Positions 12,528-23,144 of a stretch of DNA of 32,000 bases are shown in pieces. The translations under genes were made by a program, and so were the position numbers. Source of the DNA: Desulfobulbus propionicus DSM 2032 (GTDB lineage Bacteria > Desulfobacterota > Desulfobulbia > Desulfobulbales > Desulfobulbaceae); the NCBI RefSeq assembly GCF_000186885.1, contig NC_014972.1, positions 3,120,001 to 3,152,000 on the forward strand, given 5' to 3'. Under the pieces are notes generated by a model, which did not search any database, was not told the DNA's origin, and worked only from the letters and a program-made list of their open reading frames with translations. Every line of letters begins with the position of its first letter. The first letter of the stretch is position 1.

Positions 12528-13592
12528 TCAGCGGATGGACACCAGCCCCGGATCGGTTGCCCGAACCTCGCCGATAATCCCGCAGGCCGGCGCATACCCT
12601 TCCCGGCCGAGCCGCTCCAGCAACTGTTCGGCGGTTGCCCGATTGAGCGACAGCAACAGGCCGCCCGAGGTCTGCGGATCGTAGCCGATCATCTCCAGGC
12701 TGTCCATCGCCGGCAGCGCCGAGCGGACCCACTGCCGGTAAAATTCCCGGTTCCGGTAGGCGCCTTCGGGGATAATGCCCATGTCGGCAAATCCGCGCGC
12801 CTCGGCCAGGATCGGCAGTTGGGCTTGGTCAACATGAAGGGAAACCTTCGAGGCCTCGGCCATCTCGTGGAGGTGGCCAAAGAGGCCGAACCCGGTGATG
12901 TCCGTACAACCGTGGACCCCGGCCCGCAAGTTCTCATCCCTGTTGAGGAGTTCCATCGGCAGCCGGTTGAGGGTGGCCAGCAGTTCCACCAGCTGTTGTT
13001 CCAGCGCAGTTCCCGCCAATCCACCCTTGATCGCGGTCGAGAGGATGCCGGTGCCCAGCGGTTTGGTGAGCAGCAACACGTCGCCCGGGCGTGCGCCGCT
13101 GTTTTGCAGCACCCGCTGCGGATGGACCAGGCCGGTCACCGCCAGACCGTACTTCAACTCCGCATCCTCGATCGAGTGGCCGCCCACCAAGAGGGCGCCG
13201 GCCTCGCGGATCTTGTCCAGCCCCCCTTCCACCACCCGGCGGAACACCTCCTGCTCCATGGTTTTGACCGGACAGGCGAGAATGTTCATGCACAACAGCG
13301 GCCGGCCGCCCATGGCGTAGACATCGGACAGGGCGTTGGCGGCGGCGATCCGGCCGAAATCGTAGGGATCGTCGACAATGGGAGTGAAAAAATCCACAGT
13401 CTGGATCAGGGCGGTGGTGTCATCAAGGCGGTACACCCCGGCGTCGTCGCAGGTCTGCGTGCCCACCAGCAGGTTGGGGTCGTGTGGCAGGTCGAGTCCG
13501 CACAGTATCCGGCCCAGGTCCCCCGGGCCCAGCTTGGCGGCTCAGCCCGCAGCCTTGACGGTGGCGGTCAGTTTGATCGGTAGGGTAGTCAT
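12528..13592 (-). CDS. selD: Selenide, water dikinase (selenophosphate synthetase); selenocysteine-containing form with an in-frame UGA at codon 17
   Basis: The track ORF (312 aa) starts at an internal GTG at 13466. Reading upstream in the same frame from the ATG at 13592 gives [56 protein letters not shown]. This aligns residue for residue with the E. coli SelD N-terminus (..GAGCGCK..DPNLLVG..DDAAVY, from memory). The UGA (13544-13542) falls at catalytic Cys17, and Lys20 is conserved. Confidence 0.85.
13512..13530 (-). other. Candidate bacterial SECIS hairpin for the selD UGA
   Basis: On the mRNA, GGCCCGG-GGGAC-CUGGGCC forms a 7-8 bp stem with one G-U. It begins 11 nt 3' of the UGA. The fold was assessed only by eye. 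Confidence 0.4.
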
Positions 13593-15244: not shown

Positions 15245-15451
15245 ATGCCTGCGCTCGCCATCGACAGTTATCGTTGTAACGGCTGCGGCAGCTGCTGCGA
15301 GATGTGTCCCGAGGTGTTCGGACTTACCCCGCTCACCAGCAGGGCTCAACTGCTCAACCCCGATCAGGAAGTAACCGAGGACGTTCGTCGGGCTGCGGCC
15401 TTTTGTCCGAAGAAGTGTATCCTCGTCAGCGGGGAGGATATCGACGCCTGA
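15245..15451 (+). CDS. Small monocluster ferredoxin
   Basis: 68 aa with CNGCGSCCEMCP (CxxCxxCxxxCP) and a distal ..FCPKKC. It starts 16 nt after the purF stop. No obvious SD. Confidence 0.8.
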   Translation: MPALAIDSYRCNGCGSCCEMCPEVFGLTPLTSRAQLLNPDQEVTEDVRRAAAFCPKKCILVSGEDIDA

Positions 15452-15594
15452 CCAGACCAACGGGGCCAGCCTGCGTCGTCAGTCGGATTCCATCGATTCC
15501 CGGCCTGGACCATTCGTGCCGCGACGCCCCTGGGCGGGGTGCATCCTGTTCCCGTACGCGGAGCCAGTGAACCAACCCAAGCAAGGAGGCGACC

Positions 15595-16671
15595 ATGGAT
15601 CCCGCCGCGCTCATTCCCATTCCCGACGCCATTCCCGTTTCCTGGTGGTGGTTTCAGGCATTCCTGCTGCTCACCTTTTTTCTTCACCTTGTGGCCATGA
15701 ACGCGATGCTCGGCACAGCGTTCATTGGCCTGGTCAGCCATCTACGCGGTACGAACGATCGTGCCTCCTGTACCGAAGCGATCTCCAGCAACCTGCCCTT
15801 CACCATCGCCTTTGCGGTCAACTTCGGCGTGGCGCCACTGCTCTTTGTTCAGGTGCTCTATGGGCATCTCATCTACACCAGTTCCATCCTCATGGCGGTG
15901 TTCTGGCTGGCGGTGGTCGGACTGCTCATCATCGCCTATGGATTGGCCTATGTCTACAAAGACCTGTACCCCCGACTGGGAGACGCGCGGCTGGCGGTGA
16001 TCGGTTTAGCCACCCTGCTGCTGTTGGCCATTGCCTTTATCTTTACCAACAATATCAGTCTCATGCAGAAGCCGATCGCCTGGGATCGCTACTTCGATCA
16101 GCCAAGGGGCCTGCTCCTGGCCCTGGATGATCCCATGCTCTTGCCCCGCTACCTCCATTTCATGGTGTCCTCGGTGGCGGTTGGCGGCCTGGCCATCGCC
16201 CTCTTTTTCCACTGGCGGCAACGCGGCGGTGATCGCAACGCAGGTGCGTGGGTGGCTTCCGGCTGCCGGTGGTTCAGCTATGCCACCATGGCCAATTTTG
16301 CCGTCGGCTTCTGGTTCCTGGCCACCCTGCCCAAAGGAATGCTCACGACAACCATACCCGGCTTGCTCTTGCTCGCGACCCTGGTCGGCGGCATTGCCCT
16401 TTCCGTGCCGGCCATTGGCCTCGGCCTGGCTGGCCGGGCCCTCCCCGCCCTCTGGTGCACCCTGGGCACCATCGGCCTGATGGTGCTCGCCCGCAGTCTG
16501 CTGCGGACCGTCCTGTTGGCGCCTTGGTTTTCACCGGCGCAACTGCCGGTCAACCCCTCCTCCGCCCCCCTGCTGTTCTTCCTGCTCGTGCTTCTCGCCG
16601 GGGTGACGCTGATCGGCTGGATGGTGCGCTTCACCTTGCGTTCGTGCGCAAACCAGGAGGACCGGCCATGA
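15595..16671 (+). CDS. Polytopic membrane protein, CydA-like (cytochrome bd subunit I-like) paralogue without a Q-loop
   Basis: 358 aa with about 9 hydrophobic helices. AAGGAGG lies 5 nt upstream of the ATG. By-eye matches to E. coli CydA blocks: FFLHLVAMNAMLG vs YHFLFVPLTLG; AVNFGVAPLLFVQVLYG vs INFALGVATGLTMEFQFG; IFTNNISLMQKP vs ILVANGWMQNP; YLHFMVSSVAVGG vs KFVHTVASGYVTG. The function is unproven. Confidence 0.6.
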   Translation: MDPAALIPIPDAIPVSWWWFQAFLLLTFFLHLVAMNAMLGTAFIGLVSHLRGTNDRASCTEAISSNLPFTIAFAVNFGVAPLLFVQVLYGHLIYTSSILMAVFWLAVVGLLIIAYGLAYVYKDLYPRLGDARLAVIGLATLLLLAIAFIFTNNISLMQKPIAWDRYFDQPRGLLLALDDPMLLPRYLHFMVSSVAVGGLAIALFFHWRQRGGDRNAGAWVASGCRWFSYATMANFAVGFWFLATLPKGMLTTTIPGLLLLATLVGGIALSVPAIGLGLAGRALPALWCTLGTIGLMVLARSLLRTVLLAPWFSPAQLPVNPSSAPLLFFLLVLLAGVTLIGWMVRFTLRSCANQEDRP

Positions 16672-19223
16672 ACTATCCGGTCTGGCAGCTCGATGCTTTC
16701 GGCGGCGGCCTGTGGATCATCCTCATTGCCGTGTTCCATGTCTACATCGCCCACTTCGCCGTGGGCGGCGGCCTGTTCCTGGTGCTGGCCGAGCGCAAGG
16801 CCGAGCGGGAACACAACCCGGCGATCCTCGAGTATGTTCGCCGGCATGCGCGTTTCTTTCTCGTACTCACCATGGTGGCCGGCTCGATCACCGGGGTGGG
16901 CATCTGGTTCATCATCGCCCTGCTCAACCCAGCAGCCACCTCGATCCTCATCCACACCTTTGTCTTTGCCTGGGCCTCGGAATGGGTGTTCTTCCTGCTG
17001 GAAATCGTCTCCCTGTTCCTCTATGCCTATACCTTCGGACGGCTGCACCCCTCCCGCCATCGGGTGCTCGGCTGGATCTATTTCGGCTCAGCCTGGATGT
17101 CGCTGTTCCTGATCAACGGCATCATCGGCTTCATGCTCACGCCCGGAGACTGGCCGCAAACCGGCAGTTTCTGGTCCGGATTCTTCAACCCGAGCTTCTG
17201 GCCCTCGCTCTTCTTCCGCACCTTTTTGGCCCTGATCATCGCCGGCCTGTTCGGCCTGCTGACCGCCACCTGGATCAAGGACGCCAACCTGCGCACCACC
17301 ATGGTTCGTTTCTGCGCCCGCTGGCTGCTGGTTCCCTTCGTGCTCTTTGCCACCTCCGCCTTCTGGTATCGGGCCGCCCTGCCGCCCGAACTAGAGGAAA
17401 CGATGTTTACCCGCATGCCGTCGATGCGCCCCTTCATCGACGGCTTTCTCCTCGGCTCGCCGCTGCTGGTGCTCGGCGGCCTACTGCTGATCCTCCGCCT
17501 GCCCGTCGGGCTGAGCAAGGTACTGGCCGTGGGGTTGTTGCTGGTCGGCCAGCTCTACATCGGCTGCTTCGAATTCATCCGTGAGGGCGGCCGCCGACCG
17601 GACATCATTCGTGGGGTCATGTATTCAACCTCCATCCAGCACAAGGACATCGCCCGCCTGCAGCGGGACGGCCTGCTGCAAACAGCCAAATGGGTGCGCC
17701 ACCGAAAAATCACCGCCGACAACAAACTGGCTGCCGGCCGGGAGCTGTACAACCTGCTCTGCCTCTCCTGCCATAGCATCGGCGGACCGGTGCGGGACAT
17801 CAAACCGCTGGCCGCGCCGTTCACCCCGAGCGGCTTGGAGGCCATGATCAGCGGCATGGATCTATTCTCCCCTTCCATGCCGCCCTTTGCCGGCACCGCC
17901 GAGGAACGGGCCGCCCTCGCCGCCTTCATCGCCCATGGGCTCAACGGCCGCAGCGACCCCGCCTCGCCAACCCTGCCGGAAAAAAAGGTGACGCCGCCTC
18001 CTTTCTATCCCGAGCAGAGCCCATTTGTGCTGCTCGCCTGGAGCACCTTGGGCATGCGCTATGTCGGCGAAGTCAGCGGCCTGCTGTCACTGCTGCCCCC
18101 AGGCAACGGCCTGCGGGCCCAGCTGATTCGGCGCGGCGAAACGCCGGAAATCGTCAACCAAGGCGTCACCCTCACCTACCGGGTGGACAAAACACAGGAC
18201 GGCGTAGCCCAACGAGATGACTTGACCGGAGAAATGGTCATCGAGGAGGATGTATTCGTGGCCGATGACCTTCGACTGCTGCCCACCGAGCGACCGGATT
18301 TCGACCCCTACCCGGTGGTCACCATCGAGGCGCGGGACGAAAACGACACCCTGTTGGCCACCACTGAGATGGTGGCGCCGGTGTCCACCGAAATCGGCTG
18401 CAGTAACTGCCACGGCGGCCAACCCGGCAATCGCGCCGGCCTCACCCGAATGACCGCCCTCAACATCCTCCAGGCTCACGACCGGTTGAGCCACACCCAG
18501 TTGCTGGCCGCCACCAGGGACGGCCAAGCGGTCCGCTGTCAGAACTGCCACGGCGATCCCCTGGTCGAGGCCGGGGGCGATCCTGCCCGGCTCAACCTCT
18601 CCGCCGCCATCCACGGGTTCCACGCCCCTTACCTCAGGGGCAAAGGCGCGGAAGCCTGCGCCCTCTGCCATCCCTCCTCGCCCACCGGCGCCACCAGGAG
18701 TTTGCGCGACATCCATGCCGCCCTGGGCATGGATTGCACCAACTGCCATGGCTCCATCGAGGATCTTGCCCTGGGGCTGCTACAACAGGAACGAAAGAGA
18801 GGCACGACGCGGGCCGTCGCCCTCATGTCCCACCTCGCGCCACGATCCGTGGCGGATAGGGAGCAGGTCGCCCCGCGCGTCCCCTGGAGCAACCAGCCCG
18901 ATTGTTTGCACTGCCATGTCGAGTACCAGGCTCCGGCAAGCGATACCCTGGCCAACACCTGGACCAAGGACGAACAGGCGCTGTACCGCAACCGCACCGA
19001 CGACAGCGGCCGCCTGTTCTGCGCCGCCTGCCACTCCAGTCCGCATGCGGTCTATCCGGCCGTCAATGCCCACGGCCCCGGGCTGGATGTCCTCCAGCCG
19101 TTGCAGTACCAGCGCAACCGGTTACCCCTGGGAGCAAATCGCCACTGCGCGGTCTGCCACACCGTGGCCATGGAGGACGAAATGCACCACCCCAACAGCC
19201 TGCGTGATTTTCGCAATGAATAG
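16668..19223 (+). CDS. Fusion protein: CydA-like 8-TM membrane domain, a class I-like monohaem cytochrome c domain, and a seven-CxxCH multihaem domain
   Basis: The ATG at 16668 overlaps the upstream stop (ATGA), with AGGAGG 7 nt upstream. The N-terminal ~430 aa show CydA-like blocks: FHVYIAHFAVGGG, GSITGVGIWF, WASEWVFFLLEIVSLF, SLFLINGIIGFMLTPG and FEFIREGGRRPD (vs AEYGRQPW). CxxCH motifs are at 17760, 18399, 18537, 18657, 18735, 18903, 19020 and 19146 (Cys365, 578, 624, 664, 690, 746, 785, 827). The track start at 16248 is an out-of-context extension. Confidence 0.8.
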   Translation: MNYPVWQLDAFGGGLWIILIAVFHVYIAHFAVGGGLFLVLAERKAEREHNPAILEYVRRHARFFLVLTMVAGSITGVGIWFIIALLNPAATSILIHTFVFAWASEWVFFLLEIVSLFLYAYTFGRLHPSRHRVLGWIYFGSAWMSLFLINGIIGFMLTPGDWPQTGSFWSGFFNPSFWPSLFFRTFLALIIAGLFGLLTATWIKDANLRTTMVRFCARWLLVPFVLFATSAFWYRAALPPELEETMFTRMPSMRPFIDGFLLGSPLLVLGGLLLILRLPVGLSKVLAVGLLLVGQLYIGCFEFIREGGRRPDIIRGVMYSTSIQHKDIARLQRDGLLQTAKWVRHRKITADNKLAAGRELYNLLCLSCHSIGGPVRDIKPLAAPFTPSGLEAMISGMDLFSPSMPPFAGTAEERAALAAFIAHGLNGRSDPASPTLPEKKVTPPPFYPEQSPFVLLAWSTLGMRYVGEVSGLLSLLPPGNGLRAQLIRRGETPEIVNQGVTLTYRVDKTQDGVAQRDDLTGEMVIEEDVFVADDLRLLPTERPDFDPYPVVTIEARDENDTLLATTEMVAPVSTEIGCSNCHGGQPGNRAGLTRMTALNILQAHDRLSHTQLLAATRDGQAVRCQNCHGDPLVEAGGDPARLNLSAAIHGFHAPYLRGKGAEACALCHPSSPTGATRSLRDIHAALGMDCTNCHGSIEDLALGLLQQERKRGTTRAVALMSHLAPRSVADREQVAPRVPWSNQPDCLHCHVEYQAPASDTLANTWTKDEQALYRNRTDDSGRLFCAACHSSPHAVYPAVNAHGPGLDVLQPLQYQRNRLPLGANRHCAVCHTVAMEDEMHHPNSLRDFRNE

Positions 19224-19280
19224 CCACAAGAAGGCATTTGGGCGGAGCGGCATGCTCCTGTTCTTTGAGGATCAACACCG

Positions 19281-19874
19281 ATGTTGCTGCTGATCATTTT
19301 GTGGGTGGGATGGTGCGCGGTGCACAGCCTGCTGATCACCGCCACGGTCAGGCGGTGGGTTGAACACAGGGGCGGCCTTTGGCTAGGGCTGTACCGGATC
19401 GGCTATGTGGTTGCCGCCCTCGGCACCCTGCTGCCGCTGTTGTGGTACACGGCCCATCTGCCGCAGCATCCCTTCGGTCCAGTGCCCCTGTGGCTGCGGG
19501 GTGTGCAAGGACTGCTGTTCCTTTATGCCTTGGTCCTGTTCGGCGGTGGCCTGCGGGTCTACGACCTGCAAACCTTCCTCGGCCTCGCCCAATGGCGCGC
19601 GTACCGGGCAGGGCAGGCCAGTCCGCCGCCGACCTTCCAGGCACGCGGCATCCTCCGCGTTGTCCGCCACCCCTGGTACAGCGGCGGTTTCGCCCTGCTC
19701 TGGGCCCTGCCGGAACTGACCGATGTCACCCTGGTCAGCCGCGCCATCCTCTCTGTCTATCTCGTCATTGGCGCGTTGCTGGAGGAACGCAAAATGCGGG
19801 CACTCCTCGGCGAGCCTTACCGCGCCTATTGCCGGAACGTGCCGATGTTCATCCCCTGGAAGTTCGGCCGCTGA
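19281..19874 (+). CDS. Membrane methyltransferase family protein (ICMT / PEMT / DUF1295-like)
   Basis: 197 aa with about 5 TM helices. C-terminal signature: GILRVVRHPWYSGGFALLW...LLEERKMRALLGEPYRAYCRNVPMFIP. Confidence 0.75.
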   Translation: MLLLIILWVGWCAVHSLLITATVRRWVEHRGGLWLGLYRIGYVVAALGTLLPLLWYTAHLPQHPFGPVPLWLRGVQGLLFLYALVLFGGGLRVYDLQTFLGLAQWRAYRAGQASPPPTFQARGILRVVRHPWYSGGFALLWALPELTDVTLVSRAILSVYLVIGALLEERKMRALLGEPYRAYCRNVPMFIPWKFGR

Positions 19875-19880
19875 AGGCGG

Positions 19881-20528
19881 TTACTCGGCCTCCCCGAGCA
19901 GTGCCCGCCAGCGGCGAATATTGGCCTCGTTCAGTTGCCGTTCTTCCTTTTCACTCAGAAACCGGCCCAGCGGTCGTAAATCGCCGGCATCCTCGATCCT
20001 GCCGAAGGACATGTTGGCCCCGGTGTGCATCCAGGCGTCGCCAAAGGGAAAGAGGCGAAAGGCGGTGAGCAGGCCGACCGCATCTCCCTGTTGTGGCAAG
20101 GACTGGTCGAGGATGAACAGCTCCTCGCCGGTGATCACATCAAGCGCCACCACGCCGCCTGCCGGGACGATCTCCCTGAGCCAGAAGACCGAAAACCGGG
20201 CCTGGATCATACCTTCCAGGAGCATGCGCTCATCGCTCCCCTGGGGATAGAGCTTGCGGTTGAGCAGCTGCCGCACCAGGCTGAATCCACGCGGCCGATA
20301 CATGTAGAGCAGATAGTCCTGAAAGACATCCATCTCCAGTTCGTGCTCGAAACCGATGACGAATTTTCCGTTCTGTTTGCTGAACATGCCCAGCCGCTTG
20401 CCGCAGGCCCGAATGGCCTCCTTGCCGGCCAGTTTGGCCGCGCGGGCATGGAGCACGGGCATCAGCGGCCACAGTCGTTTATACTCGGCCACCAGGTCTT
20501 CAAGATTGTCGGGGATGATTGACGGCAC
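19881..20528 (-). CDS. Hypothetical protein (no recognisable domain)
   Basis: 215-aa ORF. The GTG start has GAGGAG 7 nt upstream. Its composition is balanced and non-repetitive, unlike the antisense GC artefact ORFs. Confidence 0.6.
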   Translation of the reverse strand: MPSIIPDNLEDLVAEYKRLWPLMPVLHARAAKLAGKEAIRACGKRLGMFSKQNGKFVIGFEHELEMDVFQDYLLYMYRPRGFSLVRQLLNRKLYPQGSDERMLLEGMIQARFSVFWLREIVPAGGVVALDVITGEELFILDQSLPQQGDAVGLLTAFRLFPFGDAWMHTGANMSFGRIEDAGDLRPLGRFLSEKEERQLNEANIRRWRALLGEAE

Positions 20529-22181: not shown

Positions 22182-23144
22182 TCACGGCACGGTCGACTGC
22201 CCGGAAGCGCCACTGGTGCAGTCGGTCGAGACCTGGCAGCCATCGCCGCCGTCCAATCCGGGGATGCCGGACGGGGGTGCGGTCCCAGGCAAAACGCTGG
22301 ACTGACCGCTTGCCGGCGTGCTTTCCGGGGTGCCGAGATAGGCCAGAATGGCGGCTTCTCCCCTGCGGATCGTCCACCCTTCCGGGGTTCTGGTCATCAG
22401 CACGGGAATTTCCTCGATCCCCAGGGCGGTCAGCAGGTTTTTGTTCAGGGAAGGCGAATAACCGGCATTGACGATCACCTGCGGCAGGTCGATGGAGGTG
22501 ACCTGGTCGATGGGGTTGAAGGCCACGGTGGCCCGGCCGTTGGTTTTCAGCGAGGCGATCACCCGTTCACAGTGGTCACAGGTGGAGGCATAGAACAGAT
22601 AGTGCTGGGGGTACTTCAGCAGTCCCGGACGGCTGGCGAACACGCCGGCGGTGAAGGCCTGTTCGCCGTTGACAGGGTTGCGGGCGAGGTCCAGACTGGC
22701 AAAGGCCAGCGCCGCGGTGGCGAAGACCAGAAATCCGGGCACGATCTGTTTCCAGCCAAGCAGCAGGTTAAGCAGCACCACGAAGGCGAGAATCCCGACA
22801 CAGTAGGCACAGAACGCCTGAGCGACCAGATACTGGAAGCTGACCAGTACCGCCTCCACCCCGAGCCCGGCCAGCAGGACCGTGCGAATAAACTGCGGCA
22901 GCCGCCGCATCTCTCCCCGGGCTGAACGCAGCCCCCAATACACCAGCTGGAAGAAGAACAGTCCCACCCCATTGAATACCAAGGGCGAAACCCGGGTCAA
23001 CTTTTCCACCACCTTGCAGCCGCCATTGAGGCACAGGGGCGATCCCTGATAGAGGGTGTAACCGATCTGCCCGACAATCAGCAGACTGGCGACAAGGGCC
23101 AAAAACTGGCCCAGTTGGAGCGCGGCGTTTTTTCTCTTCAGCAT
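22182..23144 (-). CDS. Vitamin K epoxide reductase (VKOR) family membrane protein fused to a thioredoxin-like domain
   Basis: N-terminal 4-5 TM region with loop cysteines (CLNGGC) and an in-membrane CAYC. The C-terminal domain carries CDHC (CxxC). It ends in a P/S/G/T-rich tail containing two further Cys. Confidence 0.75.
   Translation of the reverse strand: MLKRKNAALQLGQFLALVASLLIVGQIGYTLYQGSPLCLNGGCKVVEKLTRVSPLVFNGVGLFFFQLVYWGLRSARGEMRRLPQFIRTVLLAGLGVEAVLVSFQYLVAQAFCAYCVGILAFVVLLNLLLGWKQIVPGFLVFATAALAFASLDLARNPVNGEQAFTAGVFASRPGLLKYPQHYLFYASTCDHCERVIASLKTNGRATVAFNPIDQVTSIDLPQVIVNAGYSPSLNKNLLTALGIEEIPVLMTRTPEGWTIRRGEAAILAYLGTPESTPASGQSSVLPGTAPPSGIPGLDGGDGCQVSTDCTSGASGQSTVP

Follow-up and report, generated by a model that had tools for sequence, protein, structure and literature searches.

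A cytochrome bd-derived two-subunit module with a periplasmic octahaem cytochrome c domain in Desulfobulbus propionicus: an OR-C1 pair and candidate cytochrome c-fed reductase

We analyzed a 32,000-nt stretch of the Desulfobulbus propionicus DSM 2032 genome (NC_014972.1, assembly GCF_000186885.1, positions 3,120,001-3,152,000 of the forward strand; hereafter the window), in which two overlapping genes encode polytopic membrane proteins that we call P1 and P2. It is nearly certain that the P1-P2 pair belongs to OR-C1, a branch of the cytochrome bd superfamily, with P2 as the OR-C1a-type subunit and P1 as the OR-C1b-type partner subunit. Judging from the conserved residues, we give about an even chance to the reading that the pair acts as a quinol-independent, cytochrome c-fed bd-type reductase, the substrate of which would most likely be O2. 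The architecture has been catalogued since 2021 and belongs to a biochemically uncharacterized family. The locus is well suited to experiments but is not a discovery, and the novelty ascribed to it in an initial annotation of this DNA was overstated. The surveys of haem c-associated CydA-like clades that the same annotation had mentioned do exist, and the clades are OR-C1a and OR-C1b of Murali et al. 2021.

P1 (15595..16671, + strand) is an open reading frame (ORF) of 358 aa with nine predicted transmembrane (TM) helices and no CxxCH motif, and P2 (16668..19223, + strand) is an ORF of 851 aa with eight TM helices and eight CxxCH motifs. As initially annotated, the P1 stop and the P2 start overlap in an ATGA at 16668-16671, and both Shine-Dalgarno sequences can be read directly: AAGGAGG at 15583..15589 (+), 5 nt 5′ of the P1 ATG at 15595, and AGGAGG at 16655..16660 (+), within the 3′ end of P1 and 7 nt 5′ of the P2 start. 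P1 is at least 99% identical to the cluster that contains Despr_2723 of D. propionicus DSM 2032, annotated as "hypothetical protein", and P2 is at least 99% identical to the cluster that contains Despr_2724, annotated as "cytochrome bd quinol oxidase subunit 1 apoprotein". Searching the literature for these locus tags returned nothing.

The bd superfamily has been split into qOR, OR-C and OR-N (Murali, Gennis & Hemp 2021; bioRxiv 10.1101/2021.01.16.426971). OR-C1a was defined there as an eight-TM CydA that lacks a quinol site and carries a C-terminal haem c extension in the periplasm, and OR-C1b as an adjacent CydA-derived duplicate of eight TM helices that keeps His19 and lacks the E99 and E107 glutamates. 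The OR-C1a reference row in Supplementary Table 6 of that study lists F183 (H186 column), H24, E105, E112, S145, H131, Y119, Y121, V77 and W80, and all of these residues are present in P2 under identical numbers. The D. propionicus pair shares with OR-C1a and OR-C1b the eight-TM CydA-like subunit, the periplasmic haem c and the adjoining CydA-derived subunit, with no essential difference. In points of detail, P1 is predicted with nine helices, whereas the published count for OR-C1b is eight, and Glu306 of P2 aligns with E445, whereas the E445 cell of the OR-C1a table is empty. The conserved His188 and Met296 of P1 and the probable haem ligation of P2, one His/Met and seven bis-His, go beyond the published description of OR-C1. 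Octahaem OR-C1a members were reported from several Desulfovibrio, Desulfobulbus (now Desulfogranum) mediterraneus and Thermodesulfobacterium, and OR-C1b members were found as haem-free "hypothetical proteins" in Desulfovibrio, Desulfomicrobium and Desulforhopalus (bioRxiv 10.1101/2021.01.16.426971). A cryo-electron microscopy paper of May 2026 cites OR-C merely as a phylogenetic class.

The membrane domain of P2 (aa 1-310; 16668..17597, +) is CydA-like by Pfam, profile, fold and residue conservation. The initial annotation had expected PF01654 on both proteins; P2 matches it at 28.7 bits against a Pfam cut-off of 26.2, limited to residues 19-203, whereas P1 gives no match. When a P2 profile built from 40 relatives was compared with PDB sequences, Geobacillus thermodenitrificans CydA (5doq_A) was matched over TM1-4 with an E value of 2.8e-7, and the alignment contains a second short segment, in which P2 EFIREGGRRPYII is placed against CydA YLAEVGRQPWIL. 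The CydA-like blocks that had been recognized by eye also hold: EGGRRP aligns with AEVGRQPW of Geobacillus CydA, and INGIIGFMLTP/NNISLMQKP align with ANGWMQNP. In the AlphaFold2 (AF2) model of P2 (mean predicted local distance difference test score, pLDDT, 80.7), eight long helices lead into a helical class I cytochrome c, a proline-rich linker, a beta-sandwich and a largely irregular multihaem region, and a Foldseek search of this model against PDB returned CydA chains at all ranks from 1 to 10 (E values 6e-8 to 1.5e-5). The odd loops of P2 carry 12 lysines and arginines and the even loops one. Therefore, the N-terminus of P2 lies outside and everything past TM8 is periplasmic, in agreement with the initial placement of the C-terminus.

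Residue conservation in P2 was assessed in 113 relatives of 51-85% identity. Relative to E. coli CydA, His24 of P2 corresponds to H19, Glu105 to E99, Glu112 to E107, His131 to H126, Ser145 to S140, Asn150 to N148 and Glu306 to E445. Asn150 is kept in 109 of the 113 relatives, and each of the other six core residues is exchanged in no more than one sequence. Among the residues of the reference row, H24, E105, E112, S145, Y119, V77 and W80 are invariant in all 113 relatives, H131 is kept in 112, F183 in 111 and Y121 in 101. The TM3 glutamates Glu105 and Glu112 have the six-residue spacing seen in qOR2-4, and Glu306, which lies within a GRxP motif, corresponds to Glu445 of E. coli and Glu378 of Geobacillus. 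The haem b558 histidine column is occupied by Phe183/Arg184 in P2, the equivalent methionine is also absent, and the TM6-TM7 loop has only 13 residues, leaving no Q-loop. Thus, the data lend no support to the flat exclusion of an oxygen reductase in the initial annotation: every residue of the bd catalytic core is kept in P2, and only the quinol/haem b558 entry is lost.

Compared with canonical CydAB (E. coli 6RKO, Geobacillus 5DOQ), the pair shares the fold of both subunits and the pseudo-symmetric two-subunit design, and P2 retains the equivalents of His19, Glu99, Glu107, His126, Ser140 and Glu445. Canonical CydAB has a Q-loop and the haem b558 ligands His186 and Met393 in its catalytic subunit, whereas P2 has neither. 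TM9 of canonical CydA is replaced in P2 by the periplasmic octahaem c domain, and the partner is not CydB but a CydA duplicate with conserved histidines. P2 also has six invariant residues, His29, His60, His96, Arg184, Arg209 and Glu302 (window ~16752-17573), that correspond to none of the canonical CydA ligands and could belong to an additional cofactor site.

The periplasmic portion of P2 spans ~510 aa. The initial annotation had put it at about 420 aa, which is too short, but had correctly divided it into a monohaem unit, a beta-rich spacer and seven further CxxCH motifs. The eight motifs lie at residues 365, 578, 624, 664, 690, 746, 785 and 827. The first belongs to a class I monohaem cytochrome c (aa ~345-425; 17700..17942, +) with C365xxCH and, as the predicted axial ligand, Met404, which is invariant among relatives. 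This unit matches PF13442 over residues 353-421 (27.8 bits) and cytochrome c551 2zon_G (E value 2.5e-5), and it resembles c551/c6. PF13442 is also the model for the CcoP-type electron entry of cbb3 oxidases, a likeness at the domain level, as P2 is not a haem-copper oxidase. The unit is followed by an eight-stranded beta-sandwich (aa ~453-570; 18024..18377, +; AF2 strands at 453-569), for which Foldseek finds weak fold matches (Ig-like/NPC2/RhoGDI). The heptahaem c domain (aa ~575-851; 18390..19223, +) contains the remaining seven motifs and matches PF22113 and PF14522 over residues 660-836 (PF22113 at 36.3 bits, cut-off 30), so that both kinds of Pfam model that had been anticipated for this part of P2, cytochrome c and multihaem, were found.

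PF22113 represents MtrC domain II/IV, and by this match the last five haems (haems 4-8) are predicted to form an MtrC-type pentahaem domain. The order of beta-sandwich and pentahaem domain recalls half of MtrC. However, MtrC and OmcA are outer-membrane cytochromes and P2 is not, and the full-length MtrC/OmcA model TIGR03507 scores 32.6 bits against 209 on P2, far under its threshold. The heptahaem region contains exactly seven invariant histidines outside the motifs (604, 649, 652, 683, 793, 840 and 841), which implies bis-His ligation of haems 2-8. The haem chain of P2 would then consist of one His/Met haem beside the membrane, followed by seven bis-His haems. An artefactual gene fusion was considered for P2 and ruled out, as 119 of the 120 best matches have the same architecture of 851-879 aa with eight CxxCH motifs.

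P1 has no match in Pfam or NCBIfam, and its family profile finds only chance matches among PDB sequences; its link to CydA runs only through the predicted fold and the profile match to P2. The AF2 model of P1 (pLDDT 80.8) has nine long helices. A plain hydropathy scan overlooks helix 6, which may explain the published count of eight helices for OR-C1b. In a Foldseek search of the P1 model against PDB, ranks 1-12 are all cytochrome bd CydA/CydB chains (probability 1.00; TMq 0.48-0.72, the value of 0.72 belonging to 5doq_A), and the top 20 matches comprise 17 CydA/CydB chains and three alternative complex III subunits, all with a probability of at least 0.92. An initial profile-profile comparison of P1 with P2 was marginal (Prob 66). 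When 138 P1 representatives (30-51% identity) were set against the membrane domains of 113 P2 sequences, hhalign aligned 236 columns with Prob 95.9 and an E value of 6e-9, and the register held from TM1 through TM7. Therefore, the fold match and the alignment with P2 identify P1 as a CydA-like domain that was duplicated, diverged and takes the place of CydB. P1 could not be matched by sequence to CydB profiles and has no PF02322-type similarity; the profile test also fails for the CydA versus CydB control. Profiles enlarged with nine canonical Desulfobulbales CydA/CydB sequences gave E values of 0.022 for P2-CydA, 0.28 for P1-CydA and 0.12 for P1-CydB, which carry no weight because the CydA-CydB control (0.37) fails too. 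The E. coli CydA homologue set contained only relatives of at least 86% identity, giving a profile too shallow for hhalign.

In the columns of the P1/P2 alignment, His31 of P1 falls on His24 of P2, and His188 of P1 falls on Phe183 of P2, which agrees with the initial annotation of a histidine in the first protein and an arginine in the second at the b558 position. Among the 138 representatives, His31 is kept in 100%, His188 in 99%, Met296 in 97% and Arg185, Arg300 and Arg304 in 96-99%. P1 retains His31 in TM1 and has no conserved glutamate in TM3; its family comprises 1928 clusters at 50% identity. The TM6-TM7 loop of P1 has 10 residues; the absence of a Q-loop, noted initially for both proteins, is thus confirmed. 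Since His188 stands in the b558 histidine column, one or more haems b may be bound by P1 itself. The two subunits complement each other in their ligand patterns: in P2 the glutamates are present and the b558 histidine is absent, and P1 shows the reverse.

We scanned one genome per species and obtained at least 575 loci with a full-length P2 relative; locus comparisons were made for the best 80 of these (46-72% identity), which belong to Desulfobulbales, Desulfobacterales, Desulfuromonadales, Desulfovibrionales, Desulfarculales and others. In 71 of the 80 loci, P2 is immediately preceded by a P1 homologue, mostly with the same 4-nt ATGA overlap, and most of the other loci are contig ends. In a neighbourhood census (150 flanking proteins, 47 loci), no redox, stress or cytochrome partner recurred; the genes that did (dnaA, a flavin amine-oxidase family gene and purF) reflect lineage synteny only. 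The neighbourhood survey that had been suggested initially thus finds P1 to be the one conserved neighbour. Because no other neighbour is conserved across lineages, we regard the functional unit as a two-gene cassette. Canonical cydAB, with a 510-aa CydA carrying AEVGRQPW and a CydB of ~377 aa, is located 1-4 kb from the pair in ~10 loci from more than one lineage, namely in divergent orientation in eight related genomes (L052, L054, L055, L057, L063, L065, L066 and L067) and in two Desulfobacterales loci (L058 and L047). This position links the cassette mildly to genes of O2 respiration. A tblastn search of the 32-kb window found no canonical cydA or cydB, consistent with the initial statement that no cydB-like gene is present.

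From these data, we suggest a putative mechanism in which electrons flow inward to a bd-type site. P1 and P2 would form a heterodimer, in which P2 would be the catalytic subunit and P1 would be seated where CydB sits. The first four helices of P2 would hold a high-spin di-haem pocket, with His24 and Glu306 as ligands and Glu105 alongside, and Glu105, Glu112, His131 and Ser145 would provide a proton path facing the cytoplasm. In place of the lost quinol/haem b558 entry of CydA, P2 would use the periplasmic His/Met haem c, the beta-sandwich and the seven bis-His haems. Low-potential periplasmic donors, such as a cytochrome c3-type pool supplied by hydrogenases, formate dehydrogenases or sulfur oxidation, would load the heptahaem antenna, and electrons would pass from there through the His/Met haem to the di-haem site, where protons from the cytoplasm would be used to reduce O2 to water. 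The complex would in this way remove O2 and contribute to the proton motive force without using quinol.

The analysis shows the gene structure, the topology, the family placement, the residue conservation and the recurrent pairing of the two genes, and we infer the haem occupancy, the direction of electron flow and the identity of O2 as the substrate. His/Met haems are high-potential, and bis-His multihaem chains are low-potential. Inward flow is favored because the putative His/Met haem is near the membrane and the bis-His chain is distal to it. Likewise, an inward catalytic role is favored because buried invariant glutamates toward the cytoplasm would be needed only if a buried site consumes protons. 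An inward, cytochrome c-fed oxidase has already been proposed for OR-C by Murali et al. (bioRxiv 10.1101/2021.01.16.426971). The same study supports this proposal in another respect, as the majority of OR-C1a proteins are monohaem (Chitinophaga, Myroides, Lysinibacillus, Hydrogenobacter, Thermocrinis, Sulfurospirillum and others) and their hosts include aerobes and microaerophiles.

Nevertheless, several observations weigh against a cytochrome c-fed oxidase. The haem potentials are deduced from ligand type only. His188 of P1 in the b558 column, together with Met296 and the three arginines, would be needless in a purely structural, CydB-like partner, and this set could mark a quinol-linked haem. 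The extra invariant His29, His60 and His96 of P2, plus Arg184/Arg209, are unaccounted for by any model. Five Desulfobacteraceae loci (L034, L036, L039, L068 and L078) carry an octahaem P2 with no P1 at the locus; one of these, L034, is in the complete Desulfonema magnum genome, where the 750 nt 5′ of P2 (5233-5983) contain no ORF of at least 100 aa. Moreover, the hosts are mostly strict anaerobes that are already equipped with canonical oxidases, and biochemical, genetic or expression data or a structure for any OR-C member were not found in the literature searched.

The initial annotation rightly described a bd-derived module of two subunits that lacks a Q-loop and carries an octahaem c domain in the periplasm, but proposed quinol-to-periplasm electron transfer, the direction opposite to the one that we favor, although it is kept alive by His188 and Met296 of P1. 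In such a quinol dehydrogenase, the membrane domain would oxidize menaquinol, possibly through a b558-like haem on His188/Met296 of P1, and electrons would leave via the haems c of P2 to periplasmic acceptors, as in CymA, NrfH or CbcL. We consider this unlikely, even though the P1 histidine is 99% conserved in the haem b558 His186 column and is accompanied by Met296 and flanking arginines, the last five haems of P2 appear to form an MtrC-type pentahaem domain, metal and electrode reducers occur among the hosts (Desulfuromonadales loci), and the same function is the published hypothesis for a cable-bacterial homologue (Kjeldsen-type reading). Both subunits lack the Q-loop and the Q-loop-type quinol-site residues, and in a pure electron conduit the Glu105/Glu112/His131/Ser145 path and the Glu306/His24 pocket would have no role. 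Additionally, judging from the ligand types, outward flow would run uphill with a His/Met haem placed between the membrane haems and seven bis-His haems. P2 also shows no similarity to the NapC/NrfH family, as the NapC/NirT/NrfH/CymA quinol dehydrogenase model TIGR03153 scores 16.7 bits against a cut-off of 134.

The two directions could also be combined in a bidirectional hub that links the quinol pool, the periplasmic cytochromes and O2, letting electrons out from quinol to the periplasm under anoxia and acting as an oxidase that passes periplasmic electrons to O2 once it becomes available. The complementary ligands, with the catalytic site on P2 and the b558-column histidine on P1, would suit such a dual role, which has been proposed in cable bacteria for instant switching between anodic and cathodic functions. 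However, it requires both unproven functions together, and by analogy with bd structures the b558-like site on P1 would be distant from the P2 active site; we therefore regard a hub of this kind as quite improbable. Another reading keeps the architecture and lets the di-haem site reduce a small oxidant other than O2, such as nitric oxide (NO), nitrite-derived species or H2O2. The bd oxidases interact with NO and peroxide, and an NnrU-family gene lies 3′ of P2 in Desulfobulbaceae. However, this neighbor is confined to one family and may be plain synteny, NO- or peroxide-related genes are not recurrent in the neighbourhood census, and the co-localization with cydAB points to O2, so that a different oxidant seems very improbable to us. 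The inward, cytochrome c-fed reduction of O2 remains the reading that we favor.

The cassette is flanked by housekeeping genes, with ispDF, a peptidase gene, selD and purF on the 5′ side and genes for an NnrU-like membrane protein, a metY-like product, lipA, lipB and gcvP on the 3′ side. The order purF, 68-aa ferredoxin, P1, P2 and NnrU-like gene is seen in Desulfobulbaceae only. The ferredoxin ORF (15245-15451, +; PF13370, 40.8 bits) encodes a single-cluster 4Fe-4S protein of 68 aa and lies between purF and P1, 143 nt 5′ of P1; 14 Desulfobulbaceae loci have it in this place, and other lineages do not. It was considered in the search for a CydX-like small subunit and rejected as a soluble ferredoxin, and no short conserved membrane ORF was found. 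On the other side, a gene for an NnrU-family/ICMT-like membrane protein (19281-19874, +; PF07298, 31.2 bits, with a weak MddA-like match) starts 57 nt 3′ of P2 and is kept 3′ of P2 in 15 Desulfobulbaceae loci. A weak terminator-like hairpin at 19244-19258 separates the two genes, and their co-transcription is therefore uncertain.

Three further observations concern the window at large. In selD (12528-13592, -), an in-frame TGA at 13542-13544 occupies the conserved G-[Cys/Sec]-x-x-K position, where Sec is selenocysteine ("KAAG*AAKLGP"), and selD therefore encodes a selenocysteine-type selenophosphate synthetase; a mechanical ORF call gives only the portion past the TGA (12528-13466). A 215-aa ORF (19881-20528, -) has no Pfam or NCBIfam match and was seen only in the two closest Desulfobulbus loci (L002 and L003). 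A 320-aa membrane protein (22182-23144, -) has a sub-threshold N-terminal VKOR match (20.2 against 27.5 bits) and a Cys-containing C-terminal domain, and it is possibly a VKOR-thioredoxin-like disulfide-forming protein.

Recent papers describe a distant "CydA homologue" (CydAh) with a C-terminal periplasmic cytochrome domain in all cable bacteria. According to these papers, CydB is missing, there is no complete terminal oxidase, and the role of the CydA homologue is unresolved; it has been likened to CymA, and a dual role has also been suggested. P2 resembles CydAh in its CydA-like membrane part and periplasmic cytochrome domain, a likeness by description only, and Desulfobulbus belongs to the same family as the cable bacteria. 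Electrothrix or Electronema records do not occur among the best 80 of the at least 575 loci, and the CydAh papers mention no P1-type partner. If the cable-bacterial gene is orthologous to P2, then a P1-type gene, annotated as hypothetical and invisible to Pfam, would be an overlooked second subunit. We speculate, as a long shot, that P1 is the missing second subunit of the CydA homologue and that P1-P2 serves as the terminal oxidase and electron valve of Desulfobulbaceae, including cable bacteria; it would be fed by the periplasmic cytochrome/conductive-fibre pool and would conserve energy, with possible menaquinol exchange via a haem b on His188/Met296 of P1.

In sulfate reducers, sulfur disproportionators, metal reducers and cable bacteria, most electrons pass through periplasmic multihaem cytochromes, and their route to O2 is debated. 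Desulfobulbus propionicus is cultivable, and the question can be tested directly. If the favored reading is true, a quinol-independent bd-type oxidase acting on the periplasmic pool would fill this gap in the electron route to O2 and would represent a third route that couples cytochrome c oxidation to O2 reduction, beside the haem-copper oxidases and the quinol bd oxidases.

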